Shown: one piece after another, positions 3,007 to 32,841 of the stretch
Position numbering within the stretch: the stretch's first letter is position 1
How the letters are laid out: each line of letters starts with the position of its first letter
Origin: a virus
Length of the DNA: 64,000 nucleotides
Reading direction: 5' to 3' (one strand)
Virus record (IMG/VR): IMGVR_UViG_3300031159_000072
Location: 1 to 64,000 of that record
Notes under the pieces: generated by a model
Databases searched by the model: none
Seen by the model: the letters and a program-made list of their open reading frames with translations, nothing else
What the model was told of the DNA's origin: nothing
Program-made: the position numbers and the translations under genes

Positions 3007-3627
3007 TCAGTCGTCGGAGCGCTTGCGTCCGTCGTACCAGTGGTGCTCCTGAATGTGCTTCAGCACGGTTGGCAGCGTGCCCTTCACCTTCTCTTCCGTG
3101 CGGCCGTAGGTGGTCTTGGTGAGGCAGGCCGTCTCCCCGTCTGGCGAAACCAGGAGGGTGTACATGCCGTACTCCGATAGCGTGTGCTCGAACACGCCGT
3201 AACGCACCCACCCGTCGGCGTGCGGCTTGTAGTACTTGATTGTCTTCCGGATACCATCGAGCGTGCGCTCAAAGCTTTTCGGGTCGCCATAGGTCAGCGC
3301 GACCCTAAGCACCGGTTGGCGTGTTTCGCTCCAGATGCAGCCTGTCGTAAAACCCAGCTCGCGCATAACGCGCTCGCGCTCTCGGTAGACCTCCATGCTG
3401 ACGTCGACGCTCTCCGGCGACAGCAGGTAGGCGAGGCGATCATCCGGGCTCAGCGCTTCCAGCATCGCCCTGCCCAAGTCATCCATGAGCCTTTTCCGCT
3501 TGCCATCCAGACGGCGCAGCTTCCGGTCGATCGGCTCCCTCTCCTTGAGCAGCACCGCCACCTGATTATCCACGTCCGCGATCTTCGCTATCAGTTCCTC
3601 GATTGTCGTCGTGGTCACTGCCAGCAC
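3007..3627 (-). CDS. hypothetical phage protein
   Basis: 206-aa ORF, coiled-coil N-terminus, balanced composition. Confidence 0.55.
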   Translation of the reverse strand: MLAVTTTTIEELIAKIADVDNQVAVLLKEREPIDRKLRRLDGKRKRLMDDLGRAMLEALSPDDRLAYLLSPESVDVSMEVYRERERVMRELGFTTGCIWSETRQPVLRVALTYGDPKSFERTLDGIRKTIKYYKPHADGWVRYGVFEHTLSEYGMYTLLVSPDGETACLTKTTYGRTEEKVKGTLPTVLKHIQEHHWYDGRKRSDD

Positions 3628-3857
3628 TCGAATACGTTGTCTTGCTTCAGCTTCTGCTCCGGCACGTCGTCTGGCGGCAGGAGGGTGAACTCATCGGACG
3701 GGTCGTCTACGTACCTGCCATTGCTGTGGTGGAGGTAGCGCGAGCCACCAGCCACACTCTCGACAATCACAAAACCGTCCTTTGCGTGGATGATCTTGTG
3801 CTCAACACCCCGCCCATCCTTCACGATCGTGCCAGGCGGCAGCTTGGTGAAGTCCAT
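3615..3857 (-). CDS. small protein, FDEWE-tail family member A (ends ...NVFECWQ)
   Basis: 80 aa; N-terminal DFTKLPPGTIVKDGRGV... β-barrel-like signature; C-terminal Φ-F-E-C-W-Q; TGATG-coupled to the next member. Confidence 0.6.
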   Translation of the reverse strand: MDFTKLPPGTIVKDGRGVEHKIIHAKDGFVIVESVAGGSRYLHHSNGRYVDDPSDEFTLLPPDDVPEQKLKQDNVFECWQ

Positions 3858-4189
3858 CACTGCCACTCCTCGAACACGCTTCGCGCCGCGCCCGCCTCTC
3901 TCGCCGGCTCGTCCTGCGGCAGCCTGATGGTGTTCGGGTCGAGGTCCCTCGCCGAGGCGCCCTTGAAGCGGGGCTTCGGCGCCTCGTGGTCCACCTGCAT
4001 TTTGGGGCCACAGTAGCGCCCGCTCCGGGTCCACATCCACTGCCTCGAGCCGAGCGGGTCTGCGGCCCTCTGCGCCGCCACCCATTTTCCGGGCTCCACG
4101 TCAACGATCCGCACGGGTATTCTCCCGACACCCTTGAGCCGCACCATCGTGCCTATGGGCAGCTTGGTGAAGTCCACCGCCCGTCTCAT
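3857..4189 (-). CDS. small protein, FDEWE-tail family member B (ends ...SVFEEWQ)
   Basis: 110 aa; MRRAVDFTKLPIGTMVRLKG...; ATGA overlap with member C. Confidence 0.6.
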   Translation of the reverse strand: MRRAVDFTKLPIGTMVRLKGVGRIPVRIVDVEPGKWVAAQRAADPLGSRQWMWTRSGRYCGPKMQVDHEAPKPRFKGASARDLDPNTIRLPQDEPAREAGAARSVFEEWQ

Positions 4190-4515
4190 TGCCACTCCTC
4201 GAACACGCTGGCTCGCTTCTCGTCTTGCCGCCCCCCGTTGGCTGTAGCCCACTGCGGCACGCTGTCGGGGTCTAGGTTTACGCAGACCCCATGTTCACTG
4301 GTGGTCCGACTTTCGATCGGCGGCGGCTCCGATAGGCCCAATGAGTACCTGACGATCCTGCCGTCGGCTGCAGACCAGTATGTGTCCCCGCTCCTTTCTG
4401 CCCTTATCCGGACGCACCCGTCTCGCACGTCAATGATCTCGACGTTTCTTCCGCAGTAGTCCTTCACCACAGTGCCGATCGGAAGCGTGGTGAAGTCTGG
4501 CCGCTTCATTGACAT
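4186..4515 (-). CDS. small protein, FDEWE-tail family member C (ends ...SVFEEWQ)
   Basis: 109 aa; MSMKRPDFTTLPIGTVVKDYCGRNVEIIDVRDG... Confidence 0.6.
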   Translation of the reverse strand: MSMKRPDFTTLPIGTVVKDYCGRNVEIIDVRDGCVRIRAERSGDTYWSAADGRIVRYSLGLSEPPPIESRTTSEHGVCVNLDPDSVPQWATANGGRQDEKRASVFEEWQ

Positions 4516-4676
4516 TCCTCGATCACCGTCTTGATCCGTTCGTGATCCTTGTGTCTGATCCGCTTCCGCCGCACCGCCTTGGCCACCCGCAGCCAGAACC
4601 GCATGTCTCTGGTTTCGTGCAGGGCGAGCCAAGCGAGCGCGACCGTGTATCGACGGCGGCGCTTATTCCCACTCAT
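4506..4676 (-). CDS. small basic protein (56 aa) ending ...VIEECQ, overlapping neighbours
   Basis: MSGNKRRRRYTV...RHKDHERIKTVIEECQ; its ATG lies inside the FDEWE codons of member D and its stop overlaps the ATG of member C; tail resembles the family motif. Confidence 0.3.
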   Translation of the reverse strand: MSGNKRRRRYTVALAWLALHETRDMRFWLRVAKAVRRKRIRHKDHERIKTVIEECQ

Positions 4677-4920
4677 CGAAGACGGCGGTTTTTGGTGTGC
4701 GCTCGGCCTTAAGTTCGACCACACGAGCGCGCAGATGACAGGGGTAGTCCGGGTTATCCTCCTCGCCGACGAACAGTCCGTTCCATCTGTAGAAGAAGGT
4801 CTGTCTACCGTCGTGGATGGTGTAGTCACCGTCCTTATCGGGGCCACCCGTGAGCGTCACCATGCGGCCATCTATCGTCACGAACTGGTCGCCTTTTTCG
4901 GCTTTGCTCAGGTCGATCAT
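4663..4920 (-). CDS. small protein, FDEWE-tail family member D (ends ...AVFDEWE)
   Basis: 85 aa; EKGDQFVTIDGRMVTLTGGPDKDGDYTI (GDxV...GGP...MTV-like small β-barrel signature). Confidence 0.65.
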   Translation of the reverse strand: MIDLSKAEKGDQFVTIDGRMVTLTGGPDKDGDYTIHDGRQTFFYRWNGLFVGEEDNPDYPCHLRARVVELKAERTPKTAVFDEWE

Positions 4921-4923
4921 GGG

Positions 4924-5187
4924 TTACTCCCACTCATCGAAAAGTACGCGCTTCTCCAAGGGCTTCTCGTCATCCCCGACCTTCGCCGCCACGACGCGCC
5001 AATCTTCCGTTGTCCCGTACTTTTCCGGCAGGGCCGAGCAGATCCTCCCATCTGCCCCGTACCAGGCTGTTCCGGCTCCAGGGAGGAAGATGCAGAACGG
5101 GATATTGCTCTGGTCGACGTACGTTATCGTGCCGATCACCCCGTTCTTGCAGCGGACACGATCGCCAACCACGCATCCTTCGAGCAT
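4924..5187 (-). CDS. small protein, FDEWE-tail family member E (ends ...VLFDEWE)
   Basis: 87 aa; 3-nt spacer from neighbours; VVGDRVRCKNGVIGTITYVD...WYGADG. Confidence 0.65.
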   Translation of the reverse strand: MLEGCVVGDRVRCKNGVIGTITYVDQSNIPFCIFLPGAGTAWYGADGRICSALPEKYGTTEDWRVVAAKVGDDEKPLEKRVLFDEWE

Positions 5188-5190
5188 CGG

Positions 5191-5436
5191 TCACTCCCAC
5201 TCATCGAACACCTTGGACAGGCGGGTTAGCGTCATGGCAGATGCGTCGTCGACCAGCGCGTAGCCATCATGGTCGGAGCAGCAGTGAGGATCGCCATCGT
5301 AATGGAGCCAAAGCTCCTGGCCGTCGTCGAACTTGACCTTGTACGGTATCTCCAGGTCATCAACGTCGACGTCGATGACGATTCCCCTCACGCCGTTCTT
5401 GGCCATTACGCGCTCTCCTTTCTCGAGTATTCGCAT
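5191..5436 (-). CDS. small protein, FDEWE-tail family member F (ends ...KVFDEWE)
   Basis: 81 aa; EKGERVMAKNGVRGIVIDVD... Confidence 0.65.
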   Translation of the reverse strand: MRILEKGERVMAKNGVRGIVIDVDVDDLEIPYKVKFDDGQELWLHYDGDPHCCSDHDGYALVDDASAMTLTRLSKVFDEWE

Positions 5437-5439
5437 CGC

Positions 5440-5717
5440 TCACTCCCACTCGTCGAAGAGTGCCGGCCTTGCGGCCGGCGTCTCCTGCTCCTTCGGGTAG
5501 GGAAACTCCACGATGTTGAGGGGATGTTGCGTGCCTGGGTCGACACCGCCATAGGTCCCGTCGGCCCAGTACCATGTTGCGCCCCAGTTCCCGAAGGAGA
5601 TGGCGACGGGGACTCGGCCTGAGTACGGGTCGACCGCGGTGATCTCGCCAATCTGACCGTCTCTAGTGCGGACCTTGTCGCCGATCCGGCCCCCCCCCCC
5701 TCGAAGATGTTGAGCAT
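5440..5717 (-). pseudogene. FDEWE-tail family member G, frame-disrupted at a poly-G(10-11) tract (5690-5700); possible slippage site
   Basis: ATG at 5717 reads MLNIFEGGG, then the frame changes inside the homopolymer; the other frame continues GRIGDKVRTRDGQIGEITAVDP...WYWADG...ALFDEWE*. A run length of 9 or 12 would give one 92-aa member. Confidence 0.5.
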
Positions 5718-5720
5718 GCC

Positions 5721-7766
5721 TCACCGCCTGCCCAGCGCCTTCGACACCGCCCGGTCCGCCGAGAGCAGGTCCTTGTTGTCGACCCGGAAGCGCTCGCCGA
5801 GCAGCATGCGGGCGATGTTGTCGAGCACGCCTTTGGGCAGCTCGGCGAGGCTGTTCAGCACCTGGTAGCGCGGATAGAACTGGCTGACCGCATCGCTCAT
5901 GATGCCGATGCCAATCAGCTTCACGCCCGTCAGCTCGACATAGTCGACGACGTTGCGCAGCCAGTTGTAGATGTGCTGCCTGCCGAAGCTGCTCATGTGG
6001 GCGGGGTATCCATCCGACATGACCAGCAGGATCTTCCTGGCTTCGCGCCGCTTCATGAGGCGGCGGTGCGCCACGAGGACGGCGTCGCCGTCGGAGTTGT
6101 TGCCGCCGGCGCAGGCGGTGATGTGGCCCATCGCCCGTCTGGCTTCCCGCAGGCTCTCGTTGAAGTCCTTGAACACGTAGATGTCCAGCGGCTCCCAACG
6201 GCTGTACTTCTTGCCGTCGTTGATATCCCTCTGGTACTGCTTGGCACTGGCCTCGTCGAGGAAGCCGGACGAGTTGTTGAAGCCGAGGACCTCGAAGGGC
6301 ACGTTGACCTTCTCAAGAACCTCGGCCAGACAGATCGTCGCCTGCATGGCCAGGTACGCCGGCGAGCCGGACATCGAGCCAGACAGGTCGATCAGGATCG
6401 ACAGCGCCGTGTCGAGCGCCGGCGCCTCCTCCTTCATGCGGTAGACGTTCGACTCGCCGTTGTAGGCGGGGACCAGACGCTTCGTGTCGAGCCGGCCGTA
6501 TTCGTGGCCGCCCCGCCAGTCGGCCCGGAGCTTGGCCATGAGCGCCCGCTCCAGCTTGCGGCGCATCTGGTTCGTGCTGCCCTGCGCGTTCTCGAGGGCG
6601 CGCCGGTACATGCTGTCGCCAGACGGCCGGCTCAGGCGGTGGCCATACGAGAAGTTGTTCGAGTAGTCCGGCCGCCCTCTCTTGTCGACGCCGACGTACT
6701 TGCCGGGGCCGTCGTGGCGCGTGTGGATCTTGTCGTGCGACGTTGACCACGGCCTGTAGCCGGCTTCGATCGAAGTCGACGCATCGCCGAAAACGCGCTT
6801 GATGTTGAGTTCGGTGCCGATCGGCGTTGGCGGCGCTTCCCTGTCCGGATCGTAGACCCGGTCCACCTTCTCGGGGCCGGCGCCCACGCCGCCGGTGCTG
6901 CTGGTCGTATCCGGCGCCTTTGTCATCGTGCCGTCTGGCGCTTCGACCGTGTAGGTGTCGGGGCGCTCGCGCTTACCGGCCTCCGCGCCGTCGCTCCCGC
7001 TCTTGCCTCCGCCTTCGCCTCCGCCGCCGCCGCTGCGCTTCTCCCTCTCGTGCTCATGAACCTCCTTGCACAGACGCTCGGCCAGGTCGATCACGTCCTT
7101 CGTGTTGCGGCAGCCTTCGAGGGCGTCGATCCACAGCTCGACCTTGCGCTGGAGGTCGGCCGGCAGCTTGGCCTTGCACTCGGCGTGGCTGCGGGGCGTG
7201 TAGCCGTCGAGCGTGAATTCGTCGTAACCCGCCCGTTGGAAGCCCTCCCAGGTGATGGCGGCCGGGGCGATTATGCGCCAGTCCTCGACGGCCTCGGGCT
7301 GCTTGGGCAGGTGCTCCGTCAGGAACTCGTGGTTCACGGCGTGGTGGACCGCCGCCAGGTTCTCACGCGAGCCGACGTAGTCGGCGATGATGCGCTTCTC
7401 GATGCGCACGTCCTCAAGCGCGTTCAGGATGTGCGGGAAGAGCTTGTCGCCACGCTCCTCCGCGGCCCTCACCGCCGCCTTGTAGGCGGGCATGTCGGTG
7501 TGCCTGTTGTGTCCCGCTTCGTGGTCACAGTAGCCACGGCCGATCATCACTTGCGCCTTGGTCAGCGTCTTCGTCTGGTCGAGCGCCGGCAGGTAGATCG
7601 TGTCGCCGTCGGTGGCCGCTACCTCGCCCTGGAAGACGACGCGCAGCTTGCCGTCCCGGCTGAAGGTGCGGGCCGCCGCCGACGTCGCATCCATGAAGGT
7701 TCCGGCCGGCATGTAGCCTTCGGCCATCGCCTTGGCGACGGCGTTGTCTGAGCCTTTCTTGGCCAT
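5721..7766 (-). CDS. von Willebrand factor A (vWA) domain protein, CobT-like
   Basis: 681 aa from MAKKGSDNAV...; C-terminal vWA with LSILIDLSGSMSG (MIDAS D-x-S-x-S) ... LLVMSDGYPA; N-terminal YCDHEAGHNRHTD region resembles CobT; upstream 144 codons are GC artefact. Confidence 0.7.
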   Translation of the reverse strand: MAKKGSDNAVAKAMAEGYMPAGTFMDATSAAARTFSRDGKLRVVFQGEVAATDGDTIYLPALDQTKTLTKAQVMIGRGYCDHEAGHNRHTDMPAYKAAVRAAEERGDKLFPHILNALEDVRIEKRIIADYVGSRENLAAVHHAVNHEFLTEHLPKQPEAVEDWRIIAPAAITWEGFQRAGYDEFTLDGYTPRSHAECKAKLPADLQRKVELWIDALEGCRNTKDVIDLAERLCKEVHEHEREKRSGGGGGEGGGKSGSDGAEAGKRERPDTYTVEAPDGTMTKAPDTTSSTGGVGAGPEKVDRVYDPDREAPPTPIGTELNIKRVFGDASTSIEAGYRPWSTSHDKIHTRHDGPGKYVGVDKRGRPDYSNNFSYGHRLSRPSGDSMYRRALENAQGSTNQMRRKLERALMAKLRADWRGGHEYGRLDTKRLVPAYNGESNVYRMKEEAPALDTALSILIDLSGSMSGSPAYLAMQATICLAEVLEKVNVPFEVLGFNNSSGFLDEASAKQYQRDINDGKKYSRWEPLDIYVFKDFNESLREARRAMGHITACAGGNNSDGDAVLVAHRRLMKRREARKILLVMSDGYPAHMSSFGRQHIYNWLRNVVDYVELTGVKLIGIGIMSDAVSQFYPRYQVLNSLAELPKGVLDNIARMLLGERFRVDNKDLLSADRAVSKALGRR

Positions 7767-8062
7767 CAGTGCCTCGTGTCGGTTGTCGGTGCGTTCTGTC
7801 TGGACCAGATGGACGGGTTGCCCATCAGGTCGGTGGTCGGCGTGAAGCCGAGCTGGTGCATGGCCGTGTCCGCCGCCATCGCCCGTTGCTGGGCGAGGGC
7901 GACCTGCTTCTGGAGCCGGTGGTAGGCGACCTCGATGTCGGTGCCCAGGAGACCGCACTGCACCCAGCCGAGGCTGAGGCGCAGGCCACGCCTGCTCCAG
8001 CTTATCTTGAAGCCGTGGAACCGTGTCGTGAACACGACGTAGGCAGTAAAGGCGCGGCTCAT
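7766..8062 (-). CDS. hypothetical small protein (98 aa)
   Basis: Starts MSRAFTAYVVFTTRFHGF...; its stop overlaps the vWA start (TGATG). Confidence 0.45.
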   Translation of the reverse strand: MSRAFTAYVVFTTRFHGFKISWSRRGLRLSLGWVQCGLLGTDIEVAYHRLQKQVALAQQRAMAADTAMHQLGFTPTTDLMGNPSIWSRQNAPTTDTRH

Positions 8063-8250
8063 GGCCTCCTTCCCGCTTGCGCTCGCTGCCTTTCGTAATC
8101 CGGGTGCTCCCTGCTGTTGCACCCCATCCGCACAGACCACTGGCTGAACGGGTTGTGCAGGGCGACCAGGCCGCAGTGCTTGCAGACAGACCGCCCAATG
8201 CGCTTGTTCAGCTCCATGTTGTGCGGCTCGATCTTGAAGGCGCGGCTCAT
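8059..8250 (-). CDS. hypothetical small protein (63 aa), possible Zn-binding (CKHC)
   Basis: MSRAFKIEPHNMELNKRIGRSVCKHCG...; shares the ggcgcggctcATG start context with the downstream gene. Confidence 0.4.
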   Translation of the reverse strand: MSRAFKIEPHNMELNKRIGRSVCKHCGLVALHNPFSQWSVRMGCNSREHPDYERQRAQAGRRP

Positions 8251-8286: not shown

Positions 8287-10281
8287 TCACTTGAACGTCC
8301 GGTTCACGTACTCGTTGATGCGCGCCCGGTCCTGCTTCGTGGCCTTGGATAGGATCGTCATGTCGAGGGCGAACTCGACGGCGTCCTTCGGCTTCGGCGT
8401 CAGGGGCAGGAAGTGGACAACCGCCTCGGCCAGGGCGGCCAGGCCACGGGGGCTGACCGTCTGGCAGGTGTCACCCTGGATGAAGCCCTGGCGGACCTCG
8501 GTGGCGAAGTTGGTGATCTGCTCCGCCATGTCGGCGCTGAGCGCCGGCACCAGCTCCTGGAGCAGCTTCGCCTCTTCCTCCTTCTTGAGGTACTCGACCT
8601 CGATCCAGGTGGTGAAGCGGTCGAGCAGCGCCTGGCTCTGCGGGCGGGCGCCCTGGTAGGCGCCGAACTCGTCGCCCTGCCCCTGCGTGTTGGCCGTGGC
8701 CACGACCCGGAACATCGGGTTCGGCACGATCAGACGGCCGCCGTCCTCGGCCAGCAGCAGCCCCTTGTCCTCGAGCATGCGCTGGAAGACGTAGGCCACG
8801 TCTGGCCGGATGAAGTCGATCTCGTCGCAGAGCAAGAGGCAGGGCTGCTGCATGGCCTGCACGACGATGCCCTCGACGAACTCGGACTTGGTGACGCCGC
8901 TCTCGTTCTTGAGGACGTCACGGCCGAGCAGGTCCATCCGGGTGATCTCGCTGTCGAAGTTGATGCGGACCATCGGATAGGAAAGCCGGGCGCAGACCTG
9001 CTCGACGAGCGTCGACTTGCCGGTGCCGGTGTGGCCGTGCATCCAGACCTTCTTGTTGCGGGCGATGGCCCACAGCAGGGAGGCCAGCTTGCCGGGCTTG
9101 AACTTGTAGTTCTCGTCCTTGATCGGCACGAGCGGATGCGGGCCGTCCCACTCGAAGGTTGGCACGTCGAAGTCGAGCAGCTTCTGCTTCTTGCCGGTCG
9201 GCGCCGGGAAGACCTCGTTGGCGTTGCGCCAGACGACCTTGCCCGACGGGTAGGCGCCAGACGCGCTGGCCGTCACGGTCGTCGGCGTGGTTGGCACGGA
9301 CGCCAGCTTCCGGCGCAGCTCGTTGACCTCACGCTCCTTGACCGTGATGATCTCGCCCGACTTGGCCAGCGCATCGAAGAGCTGGTTGATGTCCGTCCAC
9401 TTGCCGGACGTGGCCTGCCCCAGCATGGCGTTGATGCCGACGGCGAAGCCCTTGTCGATCGTGATCCTTTCGGCGCTCGGAGCGGGGGCTTCGGTGGCGG
9501 TGGCGGCGTCGGCCATCTTGTAGGCTTCTCCGTAGGTCTCGGTGACGTACTTCATGATCCGCTGGGCGATCTCGCCAGACGGCTCTTCTGCGTCCTCCAG
9601 GTAGTCCGGGTCCTTGCCGCCCTCCTCACGCAGCTTCACGATGCCGGCAACGCTCTTGGTGTCGTCGCCCCAGGCGTTCCGGAACTGGTCGAGGACGGCC
9701 GCCTTGGCGGCCTTGATGTCGTCGGCGTCGATCTTCCCTTCGTGCCCTTCGGCGATACGCTGGCTCATGATGCTGCGCAGCATCTTGCGCACGAGGGCGT
9801 CGAAGCAGTCGGTGGCTTCCCCGGCGGAGGCGTCAGAGAGGTTGGGCTTCTCGATCATTGGTTCTGTTGTTGTGTGCGAGTTGATGTCGTCTACGATGCG
9901 GGCGACGCTTCCTGGCCCGAGCCTGTCGGGCCAACCAAAGGCGAAGCCGGACTTGCTTGATGCGTCGACGCGGCTAAATGCGGCCGGCGCTTTAATGGCC
10001 TTCAGGACATCGCCCCAGTTCACATGCTCAACGAGCAGTGCGAGCAGAACCTCCCAGGCCAGGGAGTCCCGCACGCCCGAGAACGTCGGCCGGACGTTGT
10101 GCTGGTTCGGGCCTGTGCCGCAGATGGGGCTCGCTTCCACGGCGGCCTTGATGTCGGCGGCGATGTTACGCTTGTTTGTCTTGAACTTCTCCGTCACCTG
10201 GCTCCTGAGCCAGGCGCGCTTCTCTTCCAGGCGGGACGAGAGCGCCCGCTTGGCTTCGGCGTAGTCGAGTTTGTAGGTCAT
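8287..10281 (-). CDS. AAA+ ATPase, CobS/MoxR-like (AAA_5), with a ~330-aa N-terminal extension
   Basis: Walker A HGHTGTGKST, Walker B LLLCDEIDF, sensor/arginine region ...VVATANTQG; partner of the downstream vWA gene. Confidence 0.75.
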   Translation of the reverse strand: MTYKLDYAEAKRALSSRLEEKRAWLRSQVTEKFKTNKRNIAADIKAAVEASPICGTGPNQHNVRPTFSGVRDSLAWEVLLALLVEHVNWGDVLKAIKAPAAFSRVDASSKSGFAFGWPDRLGPGSVARIVDDINSHTTTEPMIEKPNLSDASAGEATDCFDALVRKMLRSIMSQRIAEGHEGKIDADDIKAAKAAVLDQFRNAWGDDTKSVAGIVKLREEGGKDPDYLEDAEEPSGEIAQRIMKYVTETYGEAYKMADAATATEAPAPSAERITIDKGFAVGINAMLGQATSGKWTDINQLFDALAKSGEIITVKEREVNELRRKLASVPTTPTTVTASASGAYPSGKVVWRNANEVFPAPTGKKQKLLDFDVPTFEWDGPHPLVPIKDENYKFKPGKLASLLWAIARNKKVWMHGHTGTGKSTLVEQVCARLSYPMVRINFDSEITRMDLLGRDVLKNESGVTKSEFVEGIVVQAMQQPCLLLCDEIDFIRPDVAYVFQRMLEDKGLLLAEDGGRLIVPNPMFRVVATANTQGQGDEFGAYQGARPQSQALLDRFTTWIEVEYLKKEEEAKLLQELVPALSADMAEQITNFATEVRQGFIQGDTCQTVSPRGLAALAEAVVHFLPLTPKPKDAVEFALDMTILSKATKQDRARINEYVNRTFK

Positions 10282-12469: not shown

Positions 12470-14167
12470 TTACGCCGCCAGGTCCTCTTGGAACTGCTTG
12501 GCGACGAGCACCGTCCGCTCAATGTGGCTGGCGTCGACGGGCTTGCCCTCGGACTTGGCGAGCGACTGAGCCAGACGGACGGTCGTCTTGATCTGCCGGC
12601 CGTTGATCTCGAAGCGGGCCAGCGCCTTCGGGTCGAGGCCGGTTACGCCGGCGGCGCTGAGCAGGTTGCGCCAGACGGCTTCCCGGTGGGACTCATCGAG
12701 CGGCGGGTACTTGAGGGCGATCGAGATGCGGCTGTGGAACGCCTGGTCGAAGTTCCTGACCCGGTTCGTGGTCAGGAACATGACGCCCTGGTGGTATTCC
12801 AGCAGACGCAGGAAGACGCCGACCATGGCGTTGCGCGTGATGTCGTGCTCGTCACGGGCCTCCAGGAAGATGTCGGCTTCGTCGAGGAGGACCACGGCGT
12901 TCCAGATCTGCGCCATGTCGAGGATCTGGCGCAGGCGATCCTCGAGTTCGTCGGGGCGTGTGCCCAGCTCGCCAACCGACACGCTGTAGAGTGGGCGGTG
13001 CAGCATCTCGGCGACGGCCTCGGCGGTCAGCGTCTTGCCGGTGCCGGGCGTGCCGTGCAGCAGGAAGATGCAGCCGCCGCCCTTGCCCTCGATGACGTCG
13101 GTGAAGGTGCGGCCGGCGTTCTGCACGAGGGCAAGGATCAGGCTCTTCTTGTCGGGGTCGAGGACGAGCGTGTCGAAGGCAGCGTCGTTGAACTCGATGG
13201 GCCGCAGGTGCTCGACGCGCATCTCACCCCACTTCTTGCAGGCGAAGCTGAAACCGTGGACGAACGGCCACGTCCGCCAGAGCTGGCTGTCCGGCAGCTC
13301 CTCAAAGGGGTCGCCAGACGAGTCGTCGTCGTCGAAGTACGAGCGGTCCCGGAAGTACTGGTCGTCGATCCGCTTCATGCTGTTGAGGTCGACCATGACC
13401 CGGCCCTCGGCGCGGAATGTCTGCGTCGACCACCAGTTCTTGCGGATCAGGTGCCCCGAGTAGTGGAGGTAGTTGGCGCCGATGGCGACGTCTCGGAAGA
13501 TGCGCCCGCGCTTGGTGAGGGTCTCACGATCGGCGTCGCTGAGCGGCCGGACGGGCAGCTCGTCGAACCTCACGGTGCCCTTGAACCAACTGATGCGGAA
13601 GTCGTGCTTCCGGTGGATGAACTTTGAGCCGTTCGTGTCGACGACGGTGATGATGATGTTGAAGTAGCGTCCGAACCACGAAGTGCCGTACTCTGCGATC
13701 TCGACCTCGCCGCCGACCAGGGTGTCCCGGTGTGGCCCAACGATCTTTTGCCCCTTCTGGAAGACGTACCAGAGGAAGTCGAAGGTGATAGCACCGTCGG
13801 CGATCATGGCGTCGATGGTGGCCTGTGTATCGGCGAAGCGCTTTTCCAGCTCGGCGAGGAGGCGGCGGAGGCTGTCGAAGTCGCGGTCGCGTTTCGTTGT
13901 CTCAGCGTACTGACGCATGGAGACGATGTGCCGGAAAAGGCTTTGCACCGGCGCCCGAGGGGCGTCTTGATACCAAACCCCATCCCGGTCCGCGTTCCTC
14001 AGCCATGATCTGGTGTAGACGTCGGTCACGACGACGTACTCGATCGTGTCGATGACCTTGCCGTCCCTGTCCTTCAGCTCCTCGGTCTCGAAGCGGAAGC
14101 CCATCTTCTTCGCGGCGTCATTCGTGGCCGTGGCGACGGTCCCGTCTGCGAGCTGCGCAACGTTCAT
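12470..14167 (-). CDS. AAA ATPase (classical clade) with an unrecognised ~330-aa N-terminal domain
   Basis: C-terminal half has Walker A LLHGTPGTGKT, Walker B VVLLDEADIF, sensor-1 FLTTNR, SRH arginine FDQAFHSR. Confidence 0.75.
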   Translation of the reverse strand: MNVAQLADGTVATATNDAAKKMGFRFETEELKDRDGKVIDTIEYVVVTDVYTRSWLRNADRDGVWYQDAPRAPVQSLFRHIVSMRQYAETTKRDRDFDSLRRLLAELEKRFADTQATIDAMIADGAITFDFLWYVFQKGQKIVGPHRDTLVGGEVEIAEYGTSWFGRYFNIIITVVDTNGSKFIHRKHDFRISWFKGTVRFDELPVRPLSDADRETLTKRGRIFRDVAIGANYLHYSGHLIRKNWWSTQTFRAEGRVMVDLNSMKRIDDQYFRDRSYFDDDDSSGDPFEELPDSQLWRTWPFVHGFSFACKKWGEMRVEHLRPIEFNDAAFDTLVLDPDKKSLILALVQNAGRTFTDVIEGKGGGCIFLLHGTPGTGKTLTAEAVAEMLHRPLYSVSVGELGTRPDELEDRLRQILDMAQIWNAVVLLDEADIFLEARDEHDITRNAMVGVFLRLLEYHQGVMFLTTNRVRNFDQAFHSRISIALKYPPLDESHREAVWRNLLSAAGVTGLDPKALARFEINGRQIKTTVRLAQSLAKSEGKPVDASHIERTVLVAKQFQEDLAA

Positions 14168-32681: not shown

Positions 32682-32750
32682 GCCTTGTGGCGGGGAGCCT
32701 TGGAGGCCGGCGGGCCTCATAAGCCCGTCCTCGGTGGTTCGATTCCACCC
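32679..32750 (+). ncRNA. tRNA-like element 1 (CAT anticodon loop, canonical T-arm, 3' CCA; degenerate D-arm)
   Basis: Anticodon stem-loop CGGGC-CTCATAA-GCCCG, T-arm GGTGG-TTCGATT-CCACC, acceptor GGCGGGG/CTCCGCT with two G·U pairs, then A-CCA; the D-region is only ~13 nt. Confidence 0.4.
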
Positions 32751-32752
32751 TC

Positions 32753-32828
32753 CGCTACCAATGCGGCGTTGGTCACTCTGGTGAGGGCCTCGGCCTTCCA
32801 AGCCATTGAGGCGAGTTCGATTCTCGCA
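32753..32828 (+). tRNA. tRNA-like gene, 76 nt, Gly(TCC)-like anticodon loop
   Basis: Perfect 7-bp acceptor GCGGCGT/ACGCCGC, discriminator T, CCA; T-arm GCGAG-TTCGATT-CTCGC at canonical positions 49-65; anticodon loop CTTCCAA but only 3 of 5 stem pairs. Confidence 0.55.
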
Positions 32829-32841
32829 CGCCGCTCCAGAC

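Follow-up and report, generated by a model that had tools for sequence, protein, structure and literature searches.

The first gene (M0) of a seven-gene paralogue array in a prophage carries an unusually long G run between its native start codon, ATG 5717, and its conserved domain, and the length of this run differs between assemblies in which the prophage is otherwise identical or nearly so. With modest confidence, we read the site as a contingency-type mutational frame switch, acting through slipped-strand length change on one redundant paralogue, because the length of the tract decides which frame reaches the domain. The analysed stretch of 64,000 nucleotides (hereafter, the window) carries 11 G residues at this site, and six other assemblies carry 10.

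The prophage and its array of small genes

The window is the DNA of a temperate phage inserted into the chromosome of a bacterium. Its minus strand encodes an integrase (1-1044), a cobS-like AAA+ ATPase (8287-10281) and a cobT-like vWA protein of 681 aa (5721-7766; Pfam CobT and CobT_C; P0002, 100% identical), and a GerE-type regulator is part of the prophage gene set. Terminase, portal, major head and tail-fibre genes are found on the plus strand at 20-34 kb, and genes for a Cas4-like exonuclease, a Sak4-like annealase and a primase/helicase at 54-59 kb. Genes for tRNA-Met(CAT) and tRNA-Gly(TCC) lie between the structural genes (32689-32838, plus strand). The phage-borne tRNA-Gly(UCC) reads GGA and GGG, rare Gly codons that include those of the G tract. 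Upstream of the tRNA-Met gene, at a distance of 28 nt, is the second-longest homopolymer of the window (C8, 32654-32661).

Directly downstream of the cobT-like gene, seven paralogues (M0 to M6) extend on the minus strand from 5717/5724 down to 3615. M0 is followed by M1 (5191-5436), M2 (4924-5187), M3 (4663-4920), a short ORF X (4506-4676), M4 (4186-4509), M5 (3857-4189) and M6 (3615-3857), all on the minus strand. The genes are tightly coupled by 3-nt spacers or ATGA/TGATG overlaps (M1 to M6 span 3615-5436), and a GTGA-type overlap is present at the junction of M6 with the next gene. Each encodes a product of 80-110 aa with the common small beta-barrel core and a C-terminus of FDEWE, FEEWQ or FECWQ. 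The DNA encoding this tail (GAGTGGGAG / GAGGAGTGG) doubles as the Shine-Dalgarno (SD) site of the next gene, and the F/L-D/E-E-W-E/Q motif may therefore be constrained at two levels.

The region of M0 that follows the tract (RIGDKV...ALFDEWE; 5440-5688, minus strand) codes for a genuine member of the family. Its identity with M1-M6 is 21-36%, including the invariant G, G, G, F and W columns, and its domain scored 46 bits against an HMM built without M0, with the alignment beginning at RIGDKV, right after the tract. The AF2 model of M0 (pLDDT 63) is an all-beta barrel of five to six strands in which residues 1-10 are disordered. The best Foldseek matches (E values of at least 0.025) were the RNA-polymerase-binding Tudor domain of UvrD/PcrA and the Tudor domains of 53BP1, a weak indication that the modelled family may adopt a Tudor/SH3-like fold. 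No Pfam family was found for the array proteins, the YajC, DUF1918 and Tudor-like signals being weak. In a profile search of 1.84 billion representatives, the single-domain matches were the seven genes of the window only, and all other matches were larger proteins carrying the domain as 3-16 tandem repeats.

A distantly related prophage (L010), whose cobT is 43% identical, has the same cobS-cobT-array-GerE-integrase synteny, and its array (6217-8086) comprises seven small genes ending in LLEEWE or LMEEWDG. Given this shared synteny and the similar tails, the array and its acidic-aromatic tail are conserved features of this phage group. ORF X (...WLALHETRDMRFWLRVAKAVRRKRIRHKDHERIKTVIEECQ) has a homologue in L010 (6217-6420; WFALHRSRDLRFWRRVALVARERRIPKTDLKAIKQIADEID), directly after cobT. 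A block matching M0-M3 is absent from L010 between cobT and ORF X, which suggests that M0-M3 were inserted there as an extra block; as it is missing from L010, this block seems to be dispensable.

M0 orthologues were searched for in INPHARED (megablast), in IMG/VR (queried by DNA pattern, cobT-like protein and M0 protein), in GTDB genomes (by DNA pattern) and in protein collections, and none was found in these outside the same prophage. The DNA pattern of the locus was absent from 185,579 GTDB species representatives, and alignment of cobT against GTDB genomes returned only relatives of at most 40% identity, none of them with the array. No exact match of P0001 on contigs was returned, and the array-family alignment was too divergent to serve as a locus query. 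A 315-bp sequence (L009, NCBI ADGO01107018.1) is a fragment of the array (M1). The ADGO01 data set is a compost metagenome according to the literature, and because this array fragment occurs in it, the host is probably a compost-associated bacterium.

The poly-G tract and the reading frames of M0

The tract lies at 5690-5700 on the minus strand (C11 on the plus strand) and, read directly from the sequence, consists of exactly 11 G residues in the context TGA GGC ATG CTC AAC ATC TTC GA-G11-CC GGA TCG. It lies 15 nt past ATG 5717, near the 5' end of the M0 coding region. No other homopolymer in the 64-kb window, where long runs are strongly avoided, exceeds 8 nt; the expected number of runs of at least 11 is 0.008 based on the window's own run-extension frequencies, and 0.5 under an iid model. 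GGG accounts for 13% of the Gly codons in the window, so that the tract is composed of rare codons. No promoter-spacer or terminator sites were found in 5300-6000, which rules out the tract as part of such an element.

The stop codon of the cobT-like gene overlaps or abuts both candidate starts of M0. The native ATG (5715-5717, minus strand) begins 3 nt after that stop and is preceded, 6 nt upstream, by an SD-like AGGCGG (5724-5729, minus strand), a spacing like that of the GGGAG sites before M1-M3; the same SD-stop-NNN-ATG layout is found at the M0>M1, M1>M2 and M2>M3 junctions. The alternative GTG (5722-5724, minus strand) lies in the downstream frame and forms a GTGA overlap with the cobT-like stop TGA (5723-5721). 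The anti-SD duplex energy is -7.1 kcal/mol for ATG 5717, -6.8 for M1-M3 and -5.8 for GTG 5724, a modest difference that tells the two starts apart weakly.

With 11 G residues, the frame of ATG 5717 (MLNIFEGGGAGSATRS...) misses the domain and continues as a low-complexity ORF of 103 aa rich in Arg, Ser and Pro (5406-5717, minus strand). The domain is read in the downstream frame (GGGGRIGDKVRTRDG...ALFDEWE*), which ends at the stop 5442-5440, and the reading across the run in the other frame is GGGGRIGDKVRTRDGQIGEITAVDP...ALFDEWE*. From GTG 5724, this allele yields an uninterrupted ORF of 94 aa with MRHAQHLR as its N-terminal residues, which the JGI and Logan gene callers annotated (P0001, P0258) and which requires a tract length of 11 (or 8, 14). 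The predicted N-termini are MLNIFEGGG(G)RIGDK for the ATG product and (M)RHAQHLRGGGGRIGDK for the GTG product.

The two frames upstream of the tract were compared using a codon table from the long genes of the window, with control windows from 19 long genes and the array genes. The five ATG-frame codons (CTC AAC ATC TTC GAG) each make up 42-94% of their synonymous family, and their score of +7.67 bits was above that of every off-frame five-codon window of the 19 long genes (21,638/21,638). The seven GTG-frame codons (AGG CAT GCT CAA CAT CTT CGA) each make up at most 15% of theirs; their score of -10.18 bits was below all in-frame windows of the long genes (10,781/10,781) and of the array genes (590/590), 11,371 controls altogether. 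Past the tract, codon usage in the other frame is normal (GC3 0.80). The codon scores, the downstream usage and the junction layout thus indicate that the native coding frame truly changes within the G run, and that the annotated GTG ORF is probably fortuitous, a rescue artefact of annotation. The family HMM gave 46.1-46.8 bits for every N-terminal variant and did not distinguish ATG from GTG (46.1 vs 46.2). As these scores do not discriminate, the likeness of MLNIFE to the family start M-I/V-D-L-S-K was dropped as evidence for the ATG.

In the preliminary description, a run of 10-11 G at 5690-5700 was said to split the last array member into two frames, with an intact product at a run length of 9 or 12. 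The place was correct and the length is exactly 11 here; M0, next to the cobT-like gene, is the array gene transcribed first, not last. Codon usage confirms that the native frame changes within the run, but that description missed GTG 5724, which opens a whole ORF, so the G11 ORF is formally uninterrupted at 94 aa. The computed native-ATG product is indeed intact at both of the proposed lengths, with 92 aa at 12 and 91 aa at 9.

The TAA of the out-of-frame ORF of the G11 allele (5408-5406) overlaps an internal ATG of M1 as TAATG (5404-5408, minus strand). A strong AAGGAG lies upstream of this internal ATG, which several gene callers take as the M1 start (71 vs 81 aa). Through this overlap, the tract length could alter the initiation of M1.

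Tract length in other assemblies

Other contigs were located through the identical cobT protein, then fetched and compared. The locus is carried by 13 contigs, and the tract lengths reported here are assembly consensus (majority) calls from eight sequences including the window. G11 was found in two sequences, the window and a 77.7-kb Logan contig (L001, SRR8874190) identical to it at 13,766/13,766 bases. G10 was found in six assemblies: a 52-kb contig of JGI 3300033750 (L002) that also has one SNP at window position 13181, and, otherwise identical to the window, JGI 3300031178 (L003/L008), a 13.5-kb contig of JGI 3300033802 (L004), SRR8874315 (L005), SRR8874478 (L007) and ENA ERZ27254884 (L006). 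With the surrounding DNA identical or one SNP different over up to 13.7 kb, the tract appears, in the sequences compared, as the one hypervariable position of the locus. The JGI and Logan pipelines both yielded G11, and G10 came from these two and from ENA. Each length is present on contigs longer than 50 kb; several G10 contigs measure just 1.4-3.2 kb and are presumably of low coverage.

The sole substitution in 13.7 kb, at 13181, is T in the window (minus strand) and C in L002. Because this G10 contig also has the SNP, G10 and G11 may mark two very close lineages, not switching within one population. Several of the data sets may stem from one project, or may even be two assemblies of one read set.

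G10 is a null allele, as no start codon reaches the domain. ATG 5717 gives MLNIFEGGGPDRRQGPH* of 17 aa, and the GTG frame falls into the junk frame; no ORF spans the M0 domain in the G10 locus, and the gene callers annotated nothing there. All eight sequences (8/8) are out of frame with the native ATG, lengths of 10 and 11 being the only ones seen. Exact matches among ~15 billion proteins were found neither for the ATG-frame products predicted at lengths 9, 12 and 15 nor for the GTG-frame products predicted at lengths 8 and 14.

A proposed mutational frame switch and its alternatives

In the mechanism that we propose, replication slippage (slipped-strand mispairing) would alter the length of the slippage-prone run that separates ATG 5717 from the conserved domain of M0, and would thereby set the frame that reaches this domain. 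Length 10, the commonest allele seen, would be the null state. Length 11 would be off for the native ATG and in frame with GTG 5724, where ribosomes terminating at the cobT stop could reinitiate at the overlapping start and make the 94-aa product. Lengths 9 and 12 are the predicted native ON states, restoring the product of ATG 5717. By translational coupling, the frame-specific termination sites may also change the expression of M1 and the genes downstream. This proposal takes the polymorphism to be biological and not a read artefact, and the switching to be presumably frequent and reversible; GTG 5724 would be used as a start, the coupled effect on M1 and downstream expression would be real, and the switch would be adaptive, as opposed to a first step of gene loss.

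The 5'-proximal position of the tract, the domain directly after it and the predicted disorder of the N-terminal 10 residues support this mechanism. A contingency-type site is favoured by the rapid change of the tract while its surroundings are invariant, by its rare codons and by its position. Against it, no observed allele is in frame with the native start, a pattern that plain inactivation explains equally well, and the lack of a native-ON allele together with six intact paralogues favours decay.

Plain gene decay is accordingly a possible, if rather doubtful, explanation. The tract would then be a real slippage-prone site at which the first redundant paralogue was knocked out (G12 to G11 to G10), and the GTG ORF would be fortuitous. 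In addition to the out-of-frame state of all eight sequences, the missing G9 and G12 products and the intact paralogues, the leader of the GTG frame has the worst codon score in the window and the M0-M3 block seems dispensable, both in line with decay. The 82 downstream codons are intact with normal usage, which speaks against decay, but the copies are ~100% identical and have had no time for more of it. Also against decay, two lengths in near-identical backgrounds indicate a fast-mutating site, at which reversion would be as easy as loss.

We consider it unlikely that the two lengths are a sequencing or assembly artefact, in which one true length, possibly 12 or 9, was turned into G10 and G11 by errors of library PCR, sequencing or bubble-popping. 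A single-base difference in a homopolymer of at least 10 is a classic error site, the lengths are majority calls, and the short G10 contigs would fit such errors. However, the same two lengths recur in at least eight assemblies and three pipelines, G11 is present in both the JGI window and the Logan contig, and G10 is also found on the 52-kb and 13.5-kb contigs. Short-read consensus at 10-11-mers is usually stable, which likewise counts against an artefact.

It is quite improbable that M0 is an ordinary intact gene with GTG 5724 as its true start, G11 as the wild type and the run encoding Gly4. The uninterrupted 94-aa ORF with its GTGA overlap of the cobT stop, the similar overlap at the end of M6 and the equal family-profile scores of the two N-termini would agree with such a gene. 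Yet its leader has codons that each make up no more than 15% of their family and scores below every in-frame control, the overlapping ATG frame scores above all off-frame controls, the SD-like site is better placed for ATG 5717, and the ORF is destroyed by G10, which most assemblies carry.

We give as little credence to a designed three-state switch of the temperate phage, in which the tract sits behind both an ATG served by its SD site and a GTG fed from cobT, and its length could set the dose of the array. Expression would be full at lengths of 0 mod 3, low and coupling-dependent at 2 mod 3, and absent at 1 mod 3. Relative to the M1 start, the three frames terminate 3 nt before it, 28 nt past it or ~230 nt upstream of it.

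Programmed recoding from ATG 5717, by a ribosomal -1 frameshift on the run or by RNA-polymerase slippage adding or removing G residues, is very unlikely: although GGG in every frame within the run would let tRNA-Gly re-pair perfectly after a shift either way, the phage's own tRNA-Gly(UCC) reads GGG/GGA and a run of 11 is in principle long enough for polymerase slippage (PMC5009743), a downstream stimulatory structure is absent (MFE z-score 0.41, 129/200 shuffles of 5590-5725 folding as well), G10 would need +1 and G11 -1 so that no single programmed ribosomal shift suits both, insertions during transcription are known chiefly from A/T runs (PMC5574713, PMC1088944), and the arrangement occurs in no conserved homologue. 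The slippery heptamer G GGG GGG in the ATG frame is a formal match only. Low-level, unprogrammed leakiness on the G11 run is plausible.

Several options that had been raised before can be judged on this basis. A programmed ribosomal frameshift is unsupported, with no downstream structure and with alleles that need opposite shifts. The suggested comparison of tract length across related sequences showed a slippage-prone and, at the assembly level, length-variable tract (G10/G11), and yielded no native in-frame length. The suggestion of a simple dead gene is thereby partly upheld, as neither a 9/12 allele nor such a product among ~15 billion proteins was found. An ON/OFF switch agrees with the variable length, but G9 and G12 were unseen and GTG 5724 opens a whole ORF in the G11 allele. 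The mutational frame switch described above is the reading that we retain.

Comparison with known systems

At poly-G/C contingency loci, single-base length changes shift a gene in or out of frame (PMC5320596, PMC3786947), and a 5'-proximal tract is the classic position for translational phase variation (PMC5320596). The M0 tract is an intragenic 5' homopolymer of a length beyond chance that is polymorphic between close relatives by consensus calls, as expected of a contingency locus. Like the phase-variable poly-G/C tracts of Neisseria pilC, hmbR and pgtA, it lies 5' in the coding region, between the start and the domain, and as in phase-variable loci its length differs between otherwise identical sequences. 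Unlike in the Neisseria loci, the native ON length is unseen at M0, whose likeness to a contingency locus is one of sequence, and one of its two 'off' classes is rescued by an additional start in a different frame. The setting also differs: the known loci are surface or restriction-modification genes of host-adapted pathogens, whereas M0 encodes a cytoplasmic-looking small beta-barrel in a prophage of an environmental bacterium with 66% G+C.

G/C tracts in Bordetella are longer than chance, often polymorphic between near-clonal strains and sometimes within cultures (PMC1891110), and Gogol et al. (2007) left the choice between adaptive switch and microevolution or decay undecided per tract (PMC1891110). 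Those tracts were genotyped by PCR/LDR in strain collections, whereas the M0 tract is known from metagenome assembly consensus calls. Reversible frameshifts are known from a homopolymeric tract in Mycobacterium tuberculosis glpK and a poly-G tract in Klebsiella rmpA, where a protein is transiently but heritably lost and regained (bioRxiv 10.1101/717272; 10.1101/2025.09.12.675794). Like these, M0 has a short G/C homopolymer inside an ORF; glpK and rmpA have phenotypes and demonstrated reversion, and the M0 tract is longer (10-11).

Recoding in dnaX, IS elements and phage tail chaperones likewise joins two overlapping frames at a slippery homopolymer (PMC5009743). In contrast to those sites, M0 has neither a stimulatory structure nor a conserved two-product logic, and its tract length is not fixed. 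The tract is a G run, whereas recoding sites usually have an A/T run or an X XXY YYZ heptamer with a stimulator. It also has the length at which transcriptional slippage is usually seen (at least 9 A/T), with G/C as its base.

Tracts of G9-G23 were also observed in Patescibacteria/Saccharibacteria loci that had been fetched through a distant vWA match (L036 10239-10251, L045 9152-9161 and L086 9267-9278, also L040, L041, L051 and L080). The DNA has 36-53% G+C, and the tracts are located ~4-5 kb downstream from where the vWA match begins. Three of the loci have the tract at the 5' end of an ORF for a reverse transcriptase (RT; Pfam RVT_1, E values of 1e-10 to 3e-28). In L036, L045 and L086 the obvious ATG is out of the RT frame, which is the same anatomy of start, tract and frame change as at M0.

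Significance

The element is of a known kind, a slippage-prone homopolymer that toggles or inactivates a gene, and involves no new mechanism. It is also an annotation trap: gene callers hid the G11 frameshift via the upstream GTG and called nothing in G10, and because they treat the two alleles differently, the same locus appears as a gene or as no gene across metagenomes. If the three-state reading were true, the tract would let a phage of an environmental high-GC bacterium hedge its bets by setting the dose of the whole Tudor-like/FDEWE array in the lysogen population. More intriguing is the array itself, a cobS/cobT-linked set of uncharacterised small Tudor-like proteins with a conserved FDEW/EEW tail. 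If the polymorphism is biological, this accessory array would carry a contingency-type homopolymer in a prophage of a compost-associated, high-GC environmental bacterium, a setting in which contingency switches are rarely sought.
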